A DNA stretch of 64,000 bases from NCBI GenBank assembly GCA_002269645.1, contig NIVC01000303.1, positions 186,001-250,000 on the forward strand. The letters run 5' to 3'. Position numbers and translations under genes: made by a program. Each line of letters starts with the position of its first letter. Position 1 is the first letter of the stretch. The notes beneath the pieces are model-generated. The model saw only the letters and a program-made list of their open reading frames with translations. It did not search any database and had not been told where the DNA came from. Shown here piece by piece: positions 51,191 through 63,781 of the stretch. The stretch is from Macrostomum lignano (Eukaryota).

Positions 51191-51460
51191 GAACAAGAAA
51201 GTGACAGACAAGTTAGTAAGCTTTGAGTTATATGTAAGAGTATACAAAAAGGACTTGTCCTTTGCAAGTAGGTTATTGGTTAATGTTTATGTAAGATAGG
51301 AAATGTGCCTGTATGTTTTTTTATTTTTAATACCTATTTGCCTATTATTCATAAGAAAACCTATATTTACTACTTTAAGCAGGCCTAATAGATATTGCGT
51401 ACTATTATTTCTAGACTCTAATTTAGTTTGCCTTTAAATAGAATCATATTATATTTTTTA

Positions 51461-52237
51461 TGTACTAGTGCTATGCCTTTATCATAGTATACTCGAATGT
51501 TCTTTCAATGTAATAACTGTATATTCGAATCTTTCTTAGAAACTGAATCTACGCGAACGCCAAATAATAGTTTGTTTTAATGCGCGAAATAAATTGGAGA
51601 ATTATTTTTTTTGTTTTAATCGTATGTGGGGAAAATCACTATATATAGGAGCGGTTTCGCGACAAATATACTCTAACTGTCTTTTACTCGTGAGCAAATA
51701 ATTGCGAACAGAATAAGCAGTTCAATCTAAACCATTTCAAAGTCTTTGAGCTAAATAGCGACTTATTTATTTGCAAAACCTGTGAAACGATTCTAAGAAA
51801 TTTGCTAAGAGAAGGGAATTGGGACTAATTCTTGGAGATATACCAAGAGAGGCGCCGTGACCCTCTAGTCTCGGTGAACGCCCGATTAGGACTATTCACT
51901 AATACATATATCAGTACTAGACCGCTCAGGCCATAAGCTACCAGAACGCTACCAGAAAGCAGGCCATAAGCTACCAGAACGCTACCAGAAACGCTACTAA
52001 GAACGCTACCCAGAAATATTTAAATGAAATTCTAAGAAATAGTTAGGAGTTTAGAAAGACAGAGGTGAAAGACCTGTCACAGCTGGTAGCAAATCGGTGG
52101 GATTATTTCAGTGAGAGCGCCCACCCCTACGACAACTTGGTGACATAGCGGTGGAATCCTTATAGAGAGCCAAAGGGCCTATAACAACTTGGTGTCAGCG
52201 GCTGAGATTTCTAGACAGAGCAATTAGCCCTACAACA
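51461..52237 (+). repeat. 5' LTR
   Basis: TGTACTAGTG...CCCTACAACA; direct repeat of 55700-56475. Confidence 0.96.
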
Positions 52238-52241
52238 ACTT

Positions 52242-52260
52242 TGGTGGCAGCGATAAGGAT
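52242..52260 (+). promoter_or_regulatory. Primer-binding site, tRNA-Leu type (TGGTGGCAGCG)
   Basis: 4 nt after the LTR end; 11-nt perfect complement to the recalled 3' end of metazoan tRNA-Leu(AAG/TAG), ...CGCTGCCACCA. Confidence 0.8.
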
Positions 52261-52340
52261 TAGAGAAACGGCGCGAACTCTTAAAGCTAGATTCAGAAGA
52301 ATTCCGAAGAATAATTTGAAAAGTTTTTCGTAAAGAGAAG

Positions 52341-52919
52341 ATGAATCAGAATCAGGCTAATGATGCCATCGCCATGCTGGCAGAGGAACTGCGGAAACAT
52401 CTCAAGTTAGGATCGAAAGAAGCTGAAGTGCAAGTAGAAAAGTTCACGCCTGGTCAGAACATTAGGCAGTGGATGAACACGTTTGAGCAACAGTGCAGAA
52501 TCCAAGGGATTACAGTCGAGAAACAGAAGGAAGCTCTCTTTGCTAATCTAAACATCCCAGAGGGACTGAAACGCCGAATCAGTCACAGAAAAGAGCAGAG
52601 TCAGTACCAGGAGATTAGGCGAAGGATCATCGAAGAATTTGAGCCGAAGCAGCAGAACAAGAAAGAAGGGATTGACGCATTAGTAGAGTGTCTAATGACT
52701 CTGTCAATTGTGCTAACGAACATAAGCCTAGAGCCAAAGACAGGGCAGCAGCATCAGTCAGTACCAAGACCTCGCCGCCTGAACAGATTCAGTGGAATCA
52801 GGCCAGAGCCGAAACCTGGTCACTGCTTCTTCTGCAACCAGCCAGGACCCATTAGGCCTCAGGCAGGACACCAGTGCCGAATCAACTTCAACCGGCACGC
52901 CCAGCAGAAGCCACCCTAA
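52341..52919 (+). CDS. Short Gag-like ORF (192 aa) with degenerate zinc knuckle
   Basis: First ORF after the PBS; EKF.PGQNIRQWMNTFEQQC resembles retrotransposon capsid N-termini; CFFCNQPG knuckle lacks the canonical His/Cys. Confidence 0.65.
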   Translation: MNQNQANDAIAMLAEELRKHLKLGSKEAEVQVEKFTPGQNIRQWMNTFEQQCRIQGITVEKQKEALFANLNIPEGLKRRISHRKEQSQYQEIRRRIIEEFEPKQQNKKEGIDALVECLMTLSIVLTNISLEPKTGQQHQSVPRPRRLNRFSGIRPEPKPGHCFFCNQPGPIRPQAGHQCRINFNRHAQQKPP

Positions 52920-53714
52920 GAAGACTCGTACACAGGAGCGCGAATCTGAAAGCTATTTGTAAATATGTTTCAAATATGCAAAAAAAATATAAAAACGAAT
53001 AAAAAAATTCAGAAAACCCAAAAAAATATTTGTTTAAGAAGTATTTCGTCTGCATACTGCAATGTACTGACCAAGTAAGCCGTCTAAAGTTCGTTAAATA
53101 GCTAAAAATTTAGGAGGTAACCCTTAAAAGGGCCGTTTGACCTTAAAAGGGCCGTTTTACTAAGAAACTTATTTAGGAAAGCCAGGGAACTGCAATTTCG
53201 GACTGAAAACATTGAAGGAAGATTATTTTACTCAGAGAAGTTGACGAGAAGTTGATGCTGAGAGAATTGTGCAGAATTGTGCGAAGAGAATTGTCGAAAA
53301 GATTGGATTGCAGAGATTGGCATGACGCGCGGACAGCTACGCATGCTGACCAATTGCGGATTGGCCAAAGGCAGAAAGAAGAGGCCGATGACGCTTTCAG
53401 AAGAGCCAAAAAAGGTTCAGAGAGTCAGGCCATGCAGGAAAGGAAGGGCAGTAAGGCCTAAAGAGCAGATTAATACAGAATTTCTATGATTCTACTGACG
53501 AGGCCAAACTGAGATAGCGGAAGGGGATTCGAGATTTGGGAATTTGTTAAGAGTTGTAGGACCCGTGACAGTAGAGCTGTAGCTGGCATGAGTTCAGCAG
53601 AGAAGCTTTCGAGAGGTCAGGGTCGAGTCGAGATATTGAGTCGAGAAGTTGTTGAGTTGAGATGAGATGGAATGAAGATGAGATTTCGAGGAGAAGCTGT
53701 GAGAATTTGCAAAG

Positions 53715-54188
53715 TTGTTCGAAGAGAAACATAGAAATAATCTGACTCCAGTACCGAAATCCGAAATTAATTTACCAGAGGAAATTAATAATAATTTAAA
53801 ACCAGCACCAGTGTCAACTAAGAAGAAAGAACCGCCGAAGCCGAAGAAAAGAATTTGCCATAGACAAAAAGAAGTTAGAATTCCAGAAGTTCAAATTTTA
53901 GAGGAGGAAAGCTCAGACGAAGAAAACAGAATTCAATGGAGAGTATTCGCAGATCCGAATTCGCAGAGTGAAAACGAAGGAAATGAAGAATTGAACAGTG
54001 AGAATACAGAGAGAGCGACTGACTCAGATGAGCCATCAGAAGAAGAAGAAGGAGCATTAGAGTTAGAGGAGGAACGAGTTCAGCCAGAGAATAGGTATAA
54101 CTTTAGGATGACTCAGCGAAGGAGAGAAAGAGAAGGCGCGACAGGATTTGTGCCCCGAAGGCGCTACGTGAAATATTTAGCACCTTAA
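53715..54188 (+). CDS. Acidic ORF, probably the residual post-integrase tail of pol
   Basis: E-rich with an RYNFR motif; preceded by stop-ridden LLRVVGPVTVEL (GPY/F-like) at ~53545-53580. Confidence 0.4.
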   Translation: MFEEKHRNNLTPVPKSEINLPEEINNNLKPAPVSTKKKEPPKPKKRICHRQKEVRIPEVQILEEESSDEENRIQWRVFADPNSQSENEGNEELNSENTERATDSDEPSEEEEGALELEEERVQPENRYNFRMTQRRREREGATGFVPRRRYVKYLAP

Positions 54189-54497
54189 ATCATGACGTAA
54201 GCAATTTCCCATAAGAAACAGTGTTAAATAGTTAAAATTCCGTATTAGAATTACTTATCTGCTTATAAAATTTGACATGCTGTACATAGAGCGAATCTGT
54301 AAATACCATATTAATCTACAAAATGCGATCTTTAATTTGATACTTTACTCAAGAAAATCTATCAAAAAATAAAAAAGTTATAAAAAGAAATAGAAAATCC
54401 ATAAAAATTTAGTTGTCAAATCTGTCAAATCTGGCATGCCCCGCCCCACGCGCGAGGGGAGTGCTTCGAAGAGGTCCAGTTTTTCGGCCCGCCAGCT

Positions 54498-54505
54498 TAT
54501 AAATA
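54498..54505 (+). promoter_or_regulatory. TATA box upstream of ORF3 of the LTR element
   Basis: CTTATAAATA ~90 nt before ATG 54589, in a GC-rich island. Confidence 0.5.
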
Positions 54506-54588
54506 CGAGCACCCTGCAGGCCCCACAGATCCCATAGCTCACTGCTAGCTTCCTTTCTATTCTAAGAGCCATTCGCAGAGAAATCAAA

Positions 54589-55416
54589 ATGAACAACTCT
54601 ATTGATATCTTGGACGAGTTAATTGGCAATCTGTCAGACGATATGGAGCCCCAGCCAGCGCCCAACACCGACGAAAATGAGGCACCGCTTCGATGTGCAA
54701 CACGTCCAAAGGCGCCTGGTGTATCCAGCAAACGGCCAAGAACATCATCGCCAGCTTCATCGCCTTGCCGCCAAATGAGGGTCGAAGGCCCCGAGCAGAA
54801 GCGCGCCGCCCTGGTGGCAGCACAGGCAGCTGCGCCCGTGCGCTCCTATGTTGTCAAGGCCACGCCAGGATCGTCGACATCAAGCCGAACGCAGCAGTTG
54901 GTGTCACCGCCAGCTGCCCCATCATCGAGAAAGACCCCGGCACCACGGCAGAAGAAATCGACAGCTGCGACACCGCCAGCTCAGCAGCCAGCGTCGCAGC
55001 CGAGCCTGCAATCAGCGCAGCAGTCAGCACTACAGCCGAGCCAGCAGCAATCGAATTCGCAGAGAGATTTTCATCGCATCGTCCGAGAACTTGTGGAGAC
55101 TCGCGGAGCAGAGGTGGAAAAGCTACGCTTCCACATTGAGCAATACGCACTGAAAGTAGCGTACCACCGATCCGACAGCCGACAGCGCTACCCCCAATGC
55201 TCGCAAATTTGGACACATCTGAAGTTTCTGAGGGATCAATTCAGTTACCAGGAAGCTGTCGCTGTTCTCCAGGACGTCGCCTATCGCCTCCAGCGAGCTA
55301 TAAGAGCCAACCCGCCGCCAGCGCTGACGGTCCTCGACGAAGAGTACCGATGGTTTTTCGCTCAAGTCGGCTGGCCCTACTATCGCGACCTCCCGGAGCC
55401 CTGCATGTTTATCTGA
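54589..55416 (+). CDS. Element-borne ORF3, 275 aa, unknown function (disordered P/S/Q/basic N-terminal half plus ~120-aa predicted helical domain)
   Basis: Intact ATG-to-TGA ORF with coding-like composition between AT-rich spacers; no signal peptide or TM segment evident. Confidence 0.7.
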   Translation: MNNSIDILDELIGNLSDDMEPQPAPNTDENEAPLRCATRPKAPGVSSKRPRTSSPASSPCRQMRVEGPEQKRAALVAAQAAAPVRSYVVKATPGSSTSSRTQQLVSPPAAPSSRKTPAPRQKKSTAATPPAQQPASQPSLQSAQQSALQPSQQQSNSQRDFHRIVRELVETRGAEVEKLRFHIEQYALKVAYHRSDSRQRYPQCSQIWTHLKFLRDQFSYQEAVAVLQDVAYRLQRAIRANPPPALTVLDEEYRWFFAQVGWPYYRDLPEPCMFI

Positions 55417-55689
55417 ACTATTGAGGTGAACTAACTTTTGCGTTGCCTTTAATAACAATTTTGCCTTTTATAATACTTTTATAATAGTTCGTTTTGCTTC
55501 CATAATAGTTCTCACTTTAATGGTTTACCTACATAATAGTTCTATCACAACCATTTTATGCACCAATTGTTTTAGCACTGAATTGTGTTTTCTGCACCTT
55601 GCTTTGCACCTTTTCACCTGCATTTTCCTACGATATCAATTTTTCACTGTATACATATAATATAGTATTTCGTTCAAAATTTGATATAT

Positions 55690-55698
55690 AGAGGAAAG
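55690..55698 (+). promoter_or_regulatory. Polypurine tract AGAGGAAAG
   Basis: 1 nt before the 3' LTR. Confidence 0.7.
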
Positions 55699-55699
55699 T

Positions 55700-56475
55700 T
55701 GTACTAGTGCTATGCCTTTATCATAGTATACTCGAATGTTCTTTCAATGTAATAACTGTATATTCGAATCTTTCTTAGAAACTGAATCTACGCGAACGCC
55801 AAATAATAGTTTGTTTTAATGCGCGAAATAAATTGGAGAATTATTTTTTTGTTTTAATCGTATGTGGGGAAAATCACTATATATAGGAGCGGTTTCGCGA
55901 CAAATATACTCTAACTGTCTTTTACTCGTGAGCAAATAATTGCGAACAGAATAAGCAGTTCAATCTAAACCATTTCAAAGTCTTTGAGCTAAATAGCGAC
56001 TTATTTATTTGCAAAACCTGTGAAACGATTCTAAGAAATTTGCTAAGAGAAGGGAATTGGGACTAATTCTTGGAGATATACCAAGAGAGGCGCCGTGACC
56101 CTCTAGTCTCGGTGAACGCCCGATTAGGACTATTCACTAATACATATATCAGTACTAGACCGCTCAGGCCATAAGCTACCAGAACGCTACCAGAAAGCAG
56201 GCCATAAGCTACCAGAACGCTACCAGAAACGCTACTAAGAACGCTACCCAGAAATATTTAAATGAAATTCTAAGAAATAGTTAGGAGTTTAGAAAGACAG
56301 AGGTGAAAGACCTGTCACAGCTGGTAGCAAATCGGTGGGATTATTTCAGTGAGAGCGCCCACCCCTACGACAACTTGGTGACATAGCGGTGGAATCCTTA
56401 TAGAGAGCCAAAGGGCCTATAACAACTTGGTGTCAGCGGCTGAGATTTCTAGACAGAGCAATTAGCCCTACAACA
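55700..56475 (+). repeat. 3' LTR
   Basis: Direct repeat of 51461-52237, followed by the TTTA TSD. Confidence 0.96.
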
Positions 56476-58399
56476 TTTATATCTTTTTTATATGGTTACA
56501 TTATATTACCATAGGCATAGCTATATATATTCAAGATTCAAATTTTTTGATTCTTATACTTTGGGTTTTACTTCAAGTTAGTAGAATCTGTAGTTCATTC
56601 TGCAATTTATCATTCCTTTATAGATTCTGAATTTAACTGTGTTATTCTATTTAAATTCTACAATTTACTAGGTAGGCCCTTATTTCTAAACCTAGAAATA
56701 GGCTGTGTCATGCAACTATAGTTTGTAGAAGCACAATAAATCATATTTAAGTTATACAAATTTTAGTACTTTAAAAATTTAATAAGAATTTTTATCTAGT
56801 TTAAAGTTGCAAATATGTTGTTTAACTTTTTTGCAAGTATATTATAAATATATAAAGGATAACAGCTTTATTGAAGGAAACATTTGTATTTTTTATTTAT
56901 ATGTTTGTATTGATGCTAGAGGAGGCCTAAGCTAGAGTCTAGTAGATCCTAGACTCATTGTTAGTATAACCCACACTATACTAATGCATTTGCTTAGCTT
57001 AGCCTATGTGTACAAATGCAGCCTCTGAAATTAGACCTGAAATCTGAACTTGCTACCTAATACCATAGTAGCCAAAGCTTAATTTTGACTGAGAGTATAT
57101 TTTTTGTTTTATGACTTACCTAGGGCTAATCTGATTCTTTGTATAACTTTTTTTATAACTTGTTTTTTGGCTATCAATTTTGCAATTTATCTTTGCCTTG
57201 GTTTGCCACAATTTATATTCATATGCTAGAAGTGATTAGGTTACTTAGAAATTATAAATGTATCAAGGTATACAGAATTTAATCAATTTATATAGCTTAT
57301 TACAAAGAGAAACAATAAATAAATTTATATTTTTTTATTTTCAAACCAATTAAAATCTAAAAAATAGCTGGATCATTTAGCTAGCTTCTTCCCAAATAAA
57401 TTTTGCTAGCCTTTTTTGTTAAACAAGGCCTAAAAATATAAAACCTAATATATGTATAACCTTTTAAAATTACATTATTTAATTTTATCAATTTGCAATT
57501 TTTTTCATAAACTAAATTGGTAAGCAGTTATGCATTTCCATGTATAAACCTAAAATAGATACCCTAATTGTAATTTTTTTTCATAAAATAGGGCAGTGTT
57601 TGAAAATCTGTATTTTTATATCAATATAAGTATCTATCAATAGATGTCTTTTTGGTATTTTAAATTTAGGTGTAGAACAAGTTGGTACTAGACACTTCAT
57701 TTGTATTTTAGGATAAGCTTAGCTTTAATTATAGCCTTTGGATATATTAGTAGACCTAGCATTAAAACAAAGGCATTTCTTAATTTAAGCATAAATTATG
57801 TTAAATTCCTCCTTAATTAATTATTTAGCACCATTGATTTATTATCAATGGTCTATACCATGGGCTATATATAGACTGCAAAGCCTCTTTATATAGCCCC
57901 TGGATCTTTTGATGCTTTATAATAATAATATAGCTTGCTCAGTGTGTGTAAATCTTCTCCCTTAAATTATTTTTTTTCTTTTTTTTCTTATCTCTTATCT
58001 TGCATCACTTCTCTCACTTTTTTCCCTCTTCTCTCTTTTCTGTTCTATTTTCCTACTCTCTCTTCCTCCTTTCTCCTCCTCTTGTTCTCTTTTCCTCCCT
58101 CCACTTATCTCTTCTCTTTCCTTCATTTTTCTCTTCGACCCACAGTCATGCATTTGATTTTTTATCTGGCCTTTTTAGTTAAAAAAAGTTTGCCAGTCTC
58201 TGCTTTAAAGTGAATTTCATTTTTTTGGTTGTATTCATTCATTTATTTCTGTTGTTCTACACCCTGCCAATGAAATCAAGGGCTCCAATGGCCTTTCAAG
58301 TATTTTAAGTCTTAGTCTTAGTTATTGAATAGCCAATATCAGTAAATGAGATAGCACTTGGTGAATCCGTCAATCTGCCTAATGTATCAATTTGCAGCA

Positions 58400-58951
58400 A
58401 TGGCCACTCTGCGTGTCTGCCAACCAATGTTGGTAACTAGGCTGTTGCTAGGCGGATCTCGCCGCCTATGCAGCCAATCTACTAACGAAATCCGCATGGT
58501 AGCCAAACGCGAAATGGAGCACTTCTGGGAGAAGAATCGCAAGCTGAAACGCCCATGGAGTCCGCATCTCACTATCTATGGCAATAGCATCACCATGATA
58601 ACCTCGCTAATTCATCGCGTGTCTGGCATAGCCATGGGCCTGGCCTGGCCAGTGCTGGGCGTTGCCGGTTTCTATGCAGCCGGCAACTGGTCCAGAGTGG
58701 TAGACTGGGCCCGGGGCAGCCAGCTGGGATATCCAGTTGTGTTCGGGGTTAAATCCGTTGTCTGCTTCCTGCCAGTGTACCACATGATCAACGGCATCAG
58801 GCATCTGTGCTACGATCTTGGCTACGGATTTGATCTGGCTGTTACTAAACAGACTGGAGTGGTTGTCATCGCATTGGCCGTTGCCTGTACTCTGCTGCTG
58901 GCTTCGGTCAGACTGGCTCCTCAACCGGCTGCTTCGAAGAAACAAAGATAA
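58400..58951 (+). CDS. SDHC: Succinate dehydrogenase cytochrome b560 subunit
   Basis: Presequence-like N-terminus; FWEKNRKLKRPWSPHLTIY, SLIHRVSG, HMINGIRHL (heme His), three TM helices; intronless; TTTGCAG acceptor 3 nt before the ATG. Confidence 0.95.
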   Translation: MATLRVCQPMLVTRLLLGGSRRLCSQSTNEIRMVAKREMEHFWEKNRKLKRPWSPHLTIYGNSITMITSLIHRVSGIAMGLAWPVLGVAGFYAAGNWSRVVDWARGSQLGYPVVFGVKSVVCFLPVYHMINGIRHLCYDLGYGFDLAVTKQTGVVVIALAVACTLLLASVRLAPQPAASKKQR

Positions 58952-59494
58952 ACATAATATTCTGCAGTCGACTTTTACATTAAAAATACACTTTTTGGAT
59001 TGCTTTAAGTCGCCCTTTCAGCTTACAAATTTGTGACCTTAGTTGTGTTTAGATAATAAAATAATAGTACATTAGTGTACAAGTATAAAAGTCCCCGAAA
59101 CATGAGAAAAATTAACTAAACTACTTATCCACTTTTTCTGCAGTCGATGTGAAATATATTACTTAGTAAGTAGTAGCTCCCCGCAAGTATAACAGTTCTC
59201 CTTTTCCTAAGAACACCGCGTAATGTAGATTGACGGTAGATGTAATGTAATAAACTTAGCAATTAAGTTATAAAATACAATAAATCATTATAATGTTAAT
59301 CTCGACTCCAAGTTCGAGAGAAACTATTATTGGATAGAAGTTCTGGTTTTTTTAGCTGGCCTCTGGTTGCTTAGTAATTCAGTCTGTATTGTTTCTTGAC
59401 TTGTTTATCTTGATGACTTGTTGACTTGACTTATTGAAACAATCTGGACTTGTTTATTTTGTTAATCTTGTGTTTTGAACCTCATTTCTACTAT

Positions 59495-61525
59495 TCTCCA
59501 TTGAGAATCGTCCCTATTCTCTATTCAGAATCTCTCCATTCTCCATCCAGAATCTCCCCATTCTCTATTCAGAATCTCTCCATTCTCCAACCAGAATCTC
59601 CCTATTCTCCATCCAGAATCTCCCAATTCTCCATCCAGAATCTCCCTATTCTCTATTCAGAATCTCTCCATTCTCTATCCAGAATCTCCCCATTCTCCAT
59701 CCAGAATCTCCCCATTCTCCATCCAGAATCTTCCCATTCTCCATCCAGAAACTCCCATTCTCCATCCAGAAACTCCCCATTCTCCATCCAGAATCTCCCC
59801 ATTCTCCATCCAAAATCTTCCCATTCTCCATCCAGAAACTCCCATTCTCCATCCAGAATCTCCCCATTCTCCATCCAGAATCTCCCCATTCTCCATCCAG
59901 AATCTCCCCATTCTCCATCCAAAATCTTCCCATTCTCCATCCAGAATCTCCCAATTCTCCATCCAGAATCTCCCCATTCTCCATCCAGAATCTCCTCATT
60001 CTCCATCCAAAATCTTCCCATTCTCCATCCAGAATCTCCCCATTCTCCATCCAGAATCTCCCCATTCTCCATCCAGAAACTCCCCATTCTCCATCCAGAA
60101 TCTCCCCATTCTCCATCCAGAATCTCCCCATTCTCCATCCAAAATCTTCCCATTCTCCATCCAGAAACTCCCATTTTCCATCCAGAATCTCCCCATTCTC
60201 CATCCAGAATCTCCCCATTCTCCATCCAGAATCTCCCCATTCTCCATCCAAAATCTTCCCATTCTCCATCCAGAAACTCCCATTCTCCATCCAGAATCTC
60301 CCCATTCTCCATCCAGAATCTCCCCATTCTCCATCCAGAATCTCCCCATTCTCCATCCAAAATCTTCCCATTCTCCATCCAGAATCTCCCAATTCTCCAT
60401 CCAGAATCTCCCCATTCTCCATCCAGAATCTCCTCATTCTCCATCCAAAATCTTCCCATTCTCCATCCAGAATCTCCCCATTCTCCATCCAGAATCTCCC
60501 CATTCTCCATCCAAAATCTTCCCATTCTCCATCCAGAAACTCCCATTTTCCATCCAGAATCTCCCCATTCTCCATCCAGAATCTCCCCATTCTCCATCCA
60601 GAATCTCCCCATTCTCCATCCAAAATCTTCCCATTCTCCATCCAGAAACTCCCATTTTCCATCCAGAATCTCCCCATTCTCCATCCAGAATCTCCCCATT
60701 CTCCATCCAGAATCTCCCCATTCTCCATCCAAAATCTTCCCATTCTCCATCCAGAAACTCCCATTCTCCATCCGGAATCTCCCCATTCTCCATCCAGAAT
60801 CTCCCCATTCTCCATCCAGAATCTCCCCATTCTCCATCCAGAATCTCCCCATTCTCCATCCAGAATCTCCCCATTCTCCATCCAGAATCTCCCCATTCTC
60901 CATCCAGAATCTCCCCATTCTCCATCCAGAATCTCCCCATTCTCCATCCAGAATCTCCCTATTCTCCATCCAGAATCTCCCCATTCTCCATCCAGAATCT
61001 CCCCATTCTCCATCCAGAATCTCCCCATTCTCCATCCAGAATCTCCCCATTCTCCATCCAGAATCTCCCCATTCTCCATCCAGAATCTCCCCATTCTCCA
61101 TCCAGAATCTCCCCATTCTCCATCCAGAATCTCCCCATTCTCCATCCAGAATCTCCCCATTCTCCATCCAAAATCTTCCCATTCTCCATCCAGAATCTCC
61201 CCATTCTCCATCCAGAATCTCCCCATTCTCCATCCAGAATCTCCCCATTCTCCATCCAGAATCTCCCCATTCTCCATCCAGAATCTCCCCATTCTCCATC
61301 CAGAATCTCCCCATTCTCCATCCAGAATCTCCCCATTCTCCATCCAGAATCTCCCCATTCTCCATCCAGAATCTCCCCATTCTCCATCCAAAATCTTCCC
61401 ATTCTCCATCCAGAATCTCCCCATTCTCCATCCAGAATCTCCCCATTCTCCATCCAGAATCTCCCCATTCTCCATCCAGAATCTCCCCATTCTCCATCCA
61501 GAATCTCCCCATTCTCCATCCAAAA
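59495..61525. repeat. Minisatellite, 22 bp CCATTCTCCATCCAGAATCTCC
   Basis: About 90 units; 22-aa period in translations. Confidence 0.98.
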
Positions 61526-62164
61526 TATTCCACTAGCTTTAGAATAACTACTACTACCACTAGCTTAAAGAAAAGAGATTGTGAAACATGAAGCCATTCA
61601 GTTTTCGTTTCTTTATGTAAAACGTTTTGGAATTCTTTTTCTGAAATTCTTTACTTAGCTTTACTTAAATGGAAATAGTGATTTCAAAATGTATATATAC
61701 GAGTACAATGTTCCTGAATCAGCAATAAGAAGTTTAAAAAGTTGATATAGTTAATAAATATCAGTGTTTATTTAACAGTAACATGCAGTATAAAAACATG
61801 TTTTAGCGGAGCATGCAACAAATTTAATTTAATAACATGTCACTTCTACATATCAATATGTTGTCGGATAGTGTTTGCTTTAAAAATCCAGCAAGGAAGA
61901 CTTACCGCGACTACAGTAATGTTACAGTGTATTACCAGTGTAACACGCAATGTTCGAATGTTATTGTGAGAAAGAAAAGAGCTAAAGTGTGCTCTTCTCG
62001 TCATGGTTCTACGTGCTCGAATAATTTTTACACGACGTACGTATAATTACATGATATATAGTAAGAAAAGCACGTGATTCCGTTGTCCATGACTCAGCTT
62101 AGTTTTGTCTATGATTCAACCCCCATACACTTTTCTAGCTGACACAGGCCTAATAAAGCTGAAC

Positions 62165-62680
62165 TACTGACCTAATATAGCTGACTCACACCCTGACCCA
62201 ATTTCTAGCTGACCCACACCCTGATCCACTTTCTAGCTGACCCACACCCTGACCCACTTTCTAGCTGACCCACACAGTGACCTAAGATCTAGCTGACCCA
62301 CACACTGACCTAAATTTCTAGCTGACCCACACACTGACCTAAATTTCTAGCTGACCCACACACTGACCTAAATTTCTAGCTGACCCACACAGTGACCTAA
62401 GATCTAGCTGACCCACACACTGACCTAAATTTCTAGCTGACCCACACACTGACCTAAATTTCTAGCTGACCCACACACTGACCTAAATTTCTAGCTGACC
62501 CACACACTGACCTAAATTTCTAGCTGACCCACACACTGACCTAAATTTCTAGCTGACCCACACACTGACCTAAATTTCTAGCTGACCCACACACTGACCT
62601 AAATTTCTAGCTGACCCACACACTGACCCAAATTCTAGCTGACCCACAAACTGATCAAATTTGTAGCTGACCCGCTGACC
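62165..62680. repeat. Minisatellite, 29 bp CTAGCTGACCCACACACTGACCTAAATTT
   Basis: About 17 units. Confidence 0.96.
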
Positions 62681-62750
62681 CAATAACAGCTGAGCTTCAG
62701 TCATGTGACACAGGTACATGTAACTGTATGCACATCATCAGCAAGAAAAT

Positions 62751-63197
62751 CTACCTAATTTTATACACAACAAGTTGCTTCTTGAACAGATCAGCCACAA
62801 CTAGCAGTTCTTTTCTGTTGCTAGCCAGCCTAGCGCCGCCTGGAACAGCCGGCACAATGGCCAAGCCGCAGGGGAAACCGGCCACTGGTCGATCCTCAGT
62901 GCCTCCCCTCGGCGCCGGTTCCGACTCAATTGAGCACAGCGAAGCGCCGTCGGTTCCGGCTGACACAACCCGAATGGCGTCCCGACCGCTCTCGCTGATG
63001 TACAACCGATTGCGACTGTCAACTGCTGCATCGAGAGGCCGGTGGAAATTGTCCAAGCCAGTGCGCTTGGTTGGGTGAGCGACCAGCACAGTGTGGGGGC
63101 TGTCAGCCAGCAGGCGGTACACTTTGCCGTGCCGCATGTCTGCGGCGAGCAGGCAGTCCTGGTGGAAAGCGACACTACGAAGCTCGGCATCCGGTAT
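62751..63197 (-). CDS. Divergent NHL-repeat paralogue (copy 4), last exon
   Basis: CAG acceptor at 63198-63200, phase 0; IPDAELRSVAFHQDCLLAAD, FHRPLDAAVDSRNRLYISE, LLVVAD align with copies 1-3. Confidence 0.8.
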   Translation of the reverse strand: MPDAELRSVAFHQDCLLAADMRHGKVYRLLADSPHTVLVAHPTKRTGLDNFHRPLDAAVDSRNRLYISESGRDAIRVVSAGTDGASLCSIESEPAPRGGTEDRPVAGFPCGLAIVPAVPGGARLASNRKELLVVADLFKKQLVVYKIR

Positions 63198-63289
63198 CTG
63201 CCGGTTAGAAATAATTATATGGAATAGATGGATCTCATCCTTGTGGCGAAATGCTCAGCAACTTTCAGTGAGATTATATTCTCCATCCA

Positions 63290-63745
63290 TCAGAATCTCA
63301 CCGTGAGCAGATTCATAATCTCACAGAAAAATCATCCTCATCAGAATCTTGACCCAATCAGAATCCCAACCTAATCAGAATCTCACCCTAATCAGAATCT
63401 CATCTTAATCAGAAACTCATCTTAATCAGAATCTCACCCCGATAAAAGAATCTCACCCTAATCATAATCTCACCCCGATAAGAATCTCACCCTAATCAGA
63501 ATCTCACCCCGATAAGAATCTCACCCTAATCATAATCTCACCCCGATAAGAATCTCACCCTAATCAGAATCTCACCCCGATAAGAATCTCACCCTAATCA
63601 TAATCTCACCCCGATAAGAATCTCACCCTAATCATAAACTCACCTTAACCAGAATCTCAGCCTCATCAGAATCTCACCGTGATCAGAATCCCACCCTGAT
63701 CAGAATCTCAGCCTCATCAGACTTTCAACCTCATCAGAATCTCAA
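63290..63745. repeat. Intronic ~19-20 bp repeat AATCAGAATCTCACCC(T/C)
   Basis: Fills intron 63198-63781. Confidence 0.9.
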
Positions 63746-63781
63746 CTGAGAGAGACAGAAATCCCACCCTTGGGAACTCAC

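Follow-up and report, generated by a model that had tools for sequence, protein, structure and literature searches.

Structure of the Element

The window, that is, the whole stretch of 64,000 nucleotides analysed here (Macrostomum lignano, contig NIVC01000303.1, positions 186,001 to 250,000), contains at its positions 51461-56475 a 5,015-bp element, which is a young, pol-less Ty3/gypsy element. Long terminal repeats (LTRs) of the TG...CA type, a target-site duplication (TSD), a primer-binding site (PBS), as well as a polypurine tract (PPT) are all present, as is typical of Ty3/gypsy elements (Table 1). The 5′ LTR (51461-52237) and the 3′ LTR (55700-56475) are identical in 776 of 777 columns.

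Table 1. Features of the element and their positions in the window.
Feature	Position	Strand	Details
Left TSD	51457..51460	+	TTTA, 4 bp
5′ LTR	51461..52237	+	TG...CA, 777 bp
tRNA-complementary tracts	51878..51942	+	complementary and collinear to host tRNA-Leu(AAG): variable-arm stem (ACGCCC...GGACT), then D-arm/5′ end
Three ACGCTACC copies	51946..52010	+	at 51946, 51979, and 52003, in a 33/12-bp tandem repeat
Module 1	52073..52134	+	att-like end 52073-52081, linker GC, decayed PBS 52084-52103, spacer type C, CA at 52134
Module 2	52135..52186	+	linker ACT, decayed PBS 52138-52157, spacer type B with terminal CA
Module 3	52187..52237	+	linker ACT, decayed PBS 52190-52208, spacer type T up to the true LTR end
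Module 4	52238..52260	+	linker ACTT and working, imperfect PBS
5′ leader	52261..52340	+	starts with the family-wide AGAGAAACGG motif
Shortened gag-like ORF	52341..52919	+	192 aa
pol C-terminal remnant	53703..54188	+	recognized by a shared LTPVPKSEINL stretch
Third ORF	54589..55416	+	275 aa
PPT and GT dinucleotide	55690..55699	+	GT mirrors the AC/GC beyond the U5 CA
3′ LTR	55700..56475	+	modules 1-3; PBS-like starts at 56322, 56376, and 56428
Right TSD	56476..56479	+	TTTA

In pol-bearing relatives, the gag ORF measures 341-344 aa from stop to stop and contains a zinc knuckle, which is recognized as zf-CCHC in the relative L071 (Pfam, E 1.7e-7) and is degenerate in the window copy. Protease, reverse transcriptase (RT), and RNase H as well as the integrase core are all absent from this copy. 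The pol of L071, which belongs to the same genome, shows the protease-RT-RNase H-integrase order of Ty3/gypsy elements (Pfam), and the RT region of the relatives from this genome is 100% identical to a protein named by NCBI as one of Macrostomum lignano. The third ORF is kept in pol-less and pol-bearing copies alike and has no match in Pfam or the Atlas; a TATA-like motif lies ahead of it, near 54498. The elements of the family are 4.9-9.3 kb long and are characterized by gag and the third ORF. As a lead to their closer affinity, the Leu primer and the 4-bp TSD presumably resemble those of Mdg3/micropia.

A contig of the public run X1 fuses the flanks of 51456-56476 without the element. An empty allele thus exists, and the insertion may be polymorphic or restricted to one homeolog. 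Downstream, an intronless-looking ORF for the succinate dehydrogenase cytochrome b560 subunit (58355-58951; Pfam Sdh_cyt, E 8e-22) is found, and minisatellites with units of 8-34 bp form a dense patchwork over 1-45000 and 59400-63750.

The Row of Four Modules

Four modules follow one another across the end of the 5′ LTR, each with a linker and a site complementary to the 3′ end of a tRNA. Their TGG starts (52084, 52138, 52190, and 52242) are spaced by 54, 52, and 52 bp, as had been given in the preliminary description, and the 3′ LTR does carry modules 1-3 and stop at the CA equivalent to 52237, ahead of module 4. The same description wrote the linkers as (AC/GC)T; they actually read GC, ACT, ACT, and ACTT. 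Throughout the family, the linker from the CA to the PBS consists of AC or GC with zero to three further T before TGG and varies among junctions. A tandem-array TRIM or a simple tandem repeat, with near-identical head-to-tail units, was rejected as a description of the row, as Tandem Repeats Finder does not report it at score 30 and the spacers are mutually unlike.

The sites had been assigned to tRNA-Leu(AAG/TAG), and genes for both tRNA-Leu(AAG) and tRNA-Leu(TAG), each with the 3′ end in question, were recovered from the genome of the flatworm itself. Four sites score at least 18 in 51461-52262; among 200 dinucleotide shuffles, 194 contain no such site and six contain one. When the modules are matched to 11 host tRNA sequences, a partial set (63 candidates were scored in an Rfam search), the tRNA-Leu(AAG/TAG) 3′ end scores best for all four, module 3 being tied with an intron-containing Leu tRNA and module 2 scoring 21 versus 20 for one doubtful ARAGORN call. 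The proposal that the modules are sites for different Leu isoacceptors is therefore unsupported, since within this partial set all four fit AAG/TAG best or tie. One tRNA-Leu of the genome (L100) combines a CAG-type body with an AAG anticodon.

The PBS of module 4, although the working one, is imperfect too, with an exact match of 11 nt to tRNA-Leu(AAG/TAG). Predicted duplexes with the last 18 nt of the tRNA amount to −24.0, −23.4, −21.2, and −25.5 kcal/mol for modules 1-4 and to −39.0 kcal/mol for an exact site; in predicted binding, the working PBS would be hardly better than the inner ones. RNA folding of 51880-52300 gave nothing unusual (z −0.04).

A Second tRNA-Complementary Tract in the LTR

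Another relation to the primer tRNA, new with respect to the preliminary description, is located further upstream in the LTR. The tract 51918-51942 is complementary to nt 1-22 of tRNA-Leu(AAG) with a score of 32, compared to a shuffle maximum of 26 (n = 300), and Leu(AAG) is the best of the 11 tRNAs, all others scoring lower. Taken alone, it is predicted to form a 22-bp duplex of −40.8 kcal/mol and may represent a putative second tRNA-Leu site. The ACGCTACC motif, repeated downstream of it, is the exact complement of nt 1-8 of tRNA-Leu(AAG/TAG).

The D-arm core motif is present by pattern in 64 of 74 copies, and a variable-arm-like motif stands before the core in 48 of 49. The full 65-nt collinear alignment exceeds all 200 shuffles in just two of six subfamily representatives, and a whole antisense tRNA relic in every subfamily was rejected on this basis. 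Such a relic was not found in seven LTRs of the sister lineage described below.

Variation of the Row within the Family

A leader-anchored pattern search gave 79 places in the genome. Besides the element of the window, 74 elements were fetched, comprising most of the 79 places and some BLAST hits, and 74 of the resulting 75 could be parsed. That module number should differ among relatives had been anticipated, and the 74 copies have from one to eight junctions: one in 2 copies, two in 35, three or four in 24, and five to eight in 13, with decayed upstream modules that have no CA-linker being undercounted. Modules are 42-86 bp long (median 55 bp). Their spacers fall into about 25 types, a count that depends on the clustering threshold, and 39 arrangements occur among the 74 copies. 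The row of the window (types C, B, and T) is unique among them.

The row and its surroundings evolve at different rates. Upstream of the row, the window copy and seven siblings are identical in 534-585 of 587 bases, at least 568 in six of the seven, whereas within the row only 100-144 of 194 bases agree; the leader and the start of gag are 100% identical to those of L117. The three modules of the window recur in the order 1, 3, 2 in L003/L137, a solo-like LTR, and spacer type B recurs in subfamilies with otherwise very different LTRs. As the row is replaced or reordered while the flanking LTR stays near-identical, it turns over as a cassette, faster than by point mutation. In this regard, the idea that an ordered ladder arose by serial duplication of a single junction did not hold, because modules are reordered in L137/L003 and the whole row is replaced in LTRs that are 97-99% identical. 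The row is a cassette that is shuffled and swapped between subfamilies and not a simple tandem duplication. Exact tandem repeats of a single module do exist (L062, L059, and L202), so slippage contributes to row building. In L068, the 3′ LTR has one module more than the 5′ LTR. The att ends showed no covariation with the 3′ half of PBS variants next to them (p 0.79 for the upstream module and 0.50 for the module's own).

The genome assembly is fragmented and redundant, with duplicate flanks in L114/L130 and L125/L135, and the rows might be imagined to be products of assembly or of collapsed repeats. This explanation is largely refuted and must be regarded as very improbable: the same row is found in both LTRs of each copy, clean 4-bp TSDs bound 49 copies, the spacers are diverged and not collapsed copies, and module joints are present in independent contigs, those of four public runs containing other module joints together with an exact PBS.

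Some copies have an unusual overall organization. L060/L136, L183, and L191 are tandem elements with a common middle LTR (LTR-internal-LTR-internal-LTR), the L060/L136 pair lying inside one TSD. L108 is rearranged at its 3′ end, where, besides a truncated 3′ LTR, there are a short inverted stretch, an additional PPT, and a mini-LTR of about 45 bp that bears the TSD.

LTR Ends and tRNA Copies at the Junctions

An LTR pair with a TSD was found in 49 copies, 47 after the duplicate flanks were dropped; the other 26 of the 75 fetched copies, which have no TSD-bounded LTR pair in the stretch taken from the redundant assembly, are uncounted, and L108, L112, L113, and L115, whose LTRs are rearranged or interrupted, are excluded from the end count. 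The LTR end coincides with the last junction of the 5′ row in 43 of the 47. In the remaining four (L064, L072, L074, and L109), an inner module serves as the LTR end with its own TSD, a case that the preliminary description had proposed to look for, and one or two modules are retained in the leader. In total, TSDs accompany 15 different 10-nt ends; a module end can thus serve as an integrase end. To this extent, the view of the row as a fossil record is borne out: the ends of modules are, or once were, ends of an LTR.

Among 79 last-position PBSs, counted from the listing and including some assembly duplicates, 24 match the 18-nt tRNA complement exactly, 3 lie one step away from it, and 52 are A-rich and imperfect. 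Exact and imperfect sites precede the same leader, and the 19th base matches the element, not the tRNA. The exact 18-nt copies, with base 19 left free, indicate that the tRNA is copied into progeny.

An exact 18-nt PBS occurs at three of the four inner junctions that serve as LTR ends and at three of 96 LTR-internal junctions, the latter taken from 3′ LTRs (Fisher p 5e-4, with copies that are not independent). In L064, L072, and L109, the pair of left and right neighbours at the junction occurs, among 74 rows, only with an exact PBS, while the spacer types involved carry decayed PBSs behind other neighbours. The row of L064 lies wholly inside both LTRs of L058, and that of L109 likewise inside those of L184/L185.

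Exactness does not by itself fix the end. L058, L184, and L185 (all with TSDs) and L213 (a solo LTR with a TSD) have an exact inner PBS yet end further on, and about a dozen more LTR ends lie beyond an exact inner PBS, these counted with no TSD check. It seems from such LTRs that adjacency to the leader, not complementarity, determines the priming site.

The row also shows a modest polarity. With distance from the LTR end, the sites diverge increasingly from the tRNA (rho 0.24, p 0.014, n 103), and the first module exceeds the last by 0.87 edits (p 0.001, within-row permutation of 31 rows). G to A accounts for 82 of 126 substitutions in 45 PBS variants. The inner PBSs retain TGGT..CA and GAT, and positions 7, 8, and 18 are unchanged in all 45.

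Related Rows in Other Lineages

A sister Leu-primed lineage of the same genome, with 48% identity over protease-RT-RNase H, has PBS modules inside its LTRs as well. Its members (L146, L142, L140, and L149-L174) have LTRs with inner exact PBS modules; L146 shows three of them at 86-bp spacing, two lying inside both LTRs, with the TSD CATT. In this lineage, a conserved upstream 10-nt PBS half is followed by a complement resembling the tRNA 5′ end.

In one marine metagenome assembly, three contigs (L218, L219, and L220) contain att-PBS tandem units, which are homogeneous, whereas the spacers of the flatworm row are unlike. In L219, a 47-bp inverted-repeat end together with repeated units of att and tRNA-Leu PBS makes up the whole of a 359-bp element, which has a 4-bp TSD. 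No viral contig showed the tandem PBS pattern.

Origin of the Row

The row is a hypervariable cassette of former, interchangeable LTR ends and tRNA-Leu PBSs, which was probably assembled and reshuffled by homology-guided strand transfers from one such site to another in the course of reverse transcription. Normal priming at the last PBS would copy the upstream modules into both LTRs. If two RNAs shared one particle, plus-strand strong-stop DNA, ending with the 18-nt tRNA copy, could anneal to an upstream PBS-like site on a minus strand templated by the partner RNA. Such a strand transfer would leave the modules of the partner outside the LTR, behind an exact tRNA copy; in the next round, the captured modules would enter both LTRs. 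Jumps between module homologies would delete or reorder modules, and unused PBSs would decay, mainly by G to A. We infer that RNAs are co-packaged, that strands are transferred in this way, and in which direction the steps run. This origin does not presuppose that the inner modules bring a selected benefit.

Two observations agree with the strand-transfer origin in particular. Neighbour pairs at the exact junctions are seen only with an exact PBS, as a chimera predicts, and the rows of L064 and L109 lie inside both LTRs of L058 and of L184/L185, as would be seen after one further round. For the pairs L064/L058 and L109/L184, the direction is left unfixed, since a long row that already existed would look the same after internal priming. 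The inner end of L074 speaks against this origin, as it has a decayed PBS; this is an older copy, with LTRs 97.7% alike. When a two-parent origin of L064 and L072 was sought by SNPs and segment-wise nearest neighbours, the parents were inseparable within a subfamily that is 99-100% uniform. Retroviruses have been described to copy the tRNA with 50:50 inheritance (PMC7472051), and for HIV-1 it is documented that second-strand transfer can be aberrant and premature (PMC12657518). For Ty3 and Ty1, the PBS is reportedly not inherited from the tRNA, as far as the accessible text goes (PMC5371799), and the tRNA-copy step assumed here is for this reason borrowed from retroviruses.

For the four inner ends, the chief alternative is still internal priming. 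Rows would then be built by ordinary slippage and recombination, and the tRNA would sometimes prime an inner PBS, thereby shortening the LTR and renewing the site as an exact tRNA copy, with no modules added. The four inner-junction ends among 47 copies fit this reading, as do L058 and L064, which have the same row with different ends, and L074, for which no tRNA copy is needed; moreover, the inner sites are predicted to bind the tRNA 3′ end nearly like the last site (−21 to −24 versus −25.5 kcal/mol). We nevertheless consider it unlikely, in that an exact inner PBS does not capture priming in L058, L184, L185, and L213, and the neighbour pairs of the three exact junctions never occur with a decayed PBS, although sampling may simply have missed a parent in which these neighbours flank a decayed PBS.

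A different reading concerns the persistence of the row and is compatible with the recombination route. The row might be a selected device for anti-silencing and tRNA capture, in which the working PBS is detuned against 3′ tRNA fragments, the D-arm site restores binding energy, and the extra PBSs act as sponges or loading sites. Last PBSs are A-rich and imperfect in 52 of 79 cases and in several subfamilies, although tRNA copying should favour the perfect form, and the same pattern has been taken, in the accessible text of PMC7472051, as escape from tRNA-derived fragments (tRFs) in mouse ETn, MusD, and IAP. The D-arm complement in 64 of 74 copies, the inner modules of the sister lineage at 48% pol identity, and the motifs retained by inner PBSs (TGGT..CA and GAT, with positions 7, 8, and 18 constant over 45 variants) point the same way. 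However, shared ancestry and a bias towards G-to-A mutation could account for these invariant positions, the decay of inner sites increases with distance, many active-looking copies (37 of 74) have just one or two modules, and there is no folding signal (z −0.04). Selection for such a device appears quite improbable. A bolder combination, also to be held as doubtful, would see in the row a polarized, CRISPR-like U5 cassette: plus-strand transfer at PBSs would capture LTR ends from co-packaged relatives, so that subfamilies exchange integrase ends and PBSs at a rate far above the pace of change in the remaining genome, and selection would preserve the detuned PBS, the D-arm site, and the spare PBSs so that the element can still be primed while it evades silencing by tRNA fragments.

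Comparison with Known Systems

No description of a shuffled att-PBS array was found in the literature searched, most subscription papers, Repbase, and GyDB being outside its reach. Each part is known by itself; a shuffled array that runs through a whole family, captured intermediates included, seems not to have been described in that literature. The family records single reverse-transcription events in the form of exact tRNA copies at new junctions, LTR pairs one module apart, and one row with two ends. Thanks to such records, the exchange of LTR ends and PBSs between elements becomes testable from sequence in a tractable animal. It can also be tested whether the trade-off between priming and tRNA-fragment silencing proposed for mouse endogenous retroviruses (ERVs) shapes invertebrate Ty3/gypsy elements. 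On the practical side, PBS rows can mislead the annotation of LTR boundaries and PBSs.

Ty3/Mdg4 families have been catalogued in the same host (PMC12801592), and the present family must be among or near the 129 listed (Table S1); the terms PBS, primer binding, tRNA, and tandem are absent from the main text of that paper. According to the accessible part of PMC13524379, one PBS is called per element.

Helenus/TRIMp3 (Kojima 2024, PMC10886601) likewise has a tRNA-related sequence in the LTR and a 4-bp TSD in animals. According to that paper, Helenus elements are protein-less TRIMs of less than 1 kb, and no relation exists between their PBS and their tRNA-like part. An identity with Helenus/TRIMp3 was ruled out, the flatworm elements being 4.9-9.3 kb long with gag and the third ORF. 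In contrast to Helenus, the flatworm tract is complementary to the primer tRNA-Leu itself, and its A- and B-box equivalents are broken.

Bipartite tRNA binding has been reported for yeast Ty3 and Ty1 (PMC5371799), and two PBSs for Drosophila gypsy (PMC1635307), as given in the accessible portions of these sources. What is common with the flatworm family is a short PBS with a further site that lies in the LTR or close to it and has complementarity to other arms of the tRNA, and an extra, non-priming PBS; the putative D-arm site might act like the bipartite site of Ty3/Ty1 or the second PBS of gypsy. The flatworm family differs by the use of tRNA-Leu, not initiator Met or Lys, and by the repetition of att-PBS junctions. 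It is, moreover, a gypsy-type element that evidently inherits its PBS from the tRNA, which yeast Ty3, on the same partial account, does not.

In mouse ETn, MusD, and IAP, the imperfect common PBS has been read as escape from 3′-tRF silencing (Cullen and Schorn 2020, PMC7472051). There, as in the flatworm family, most copies have a mismatched PBS, and a smaller part of them has gone back to an exact copy of the tRNA, a pattern of exact and imperfect PBSs that the accessible text explains by primer copying in plus-strand synthesis. The flatworm element is of the Ty3/gypsy type, its mismatch includes a 1-nt insertion, and no array is described for mouse in that text.

The canonical retroviral and Ty3/gypsy junction, as presented in the accessible parts of PMC7472051 and PMC12657518, shares with the flatworm family the TG...CA LTRs, a dinucleotide past each end, a PBS a few bases beyond the LTR, the presence in some of the progeny of an exact 18-nt copy of the tRNA, and, in HIV-1, the existence of aberrant second-strand transfers. 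In the flatworm family, however, this junction is present from one to eight times, with unlike spacers and mostly inside both LTRs, and its aberrant products are not dead ends but are integrated, young, and inherited.
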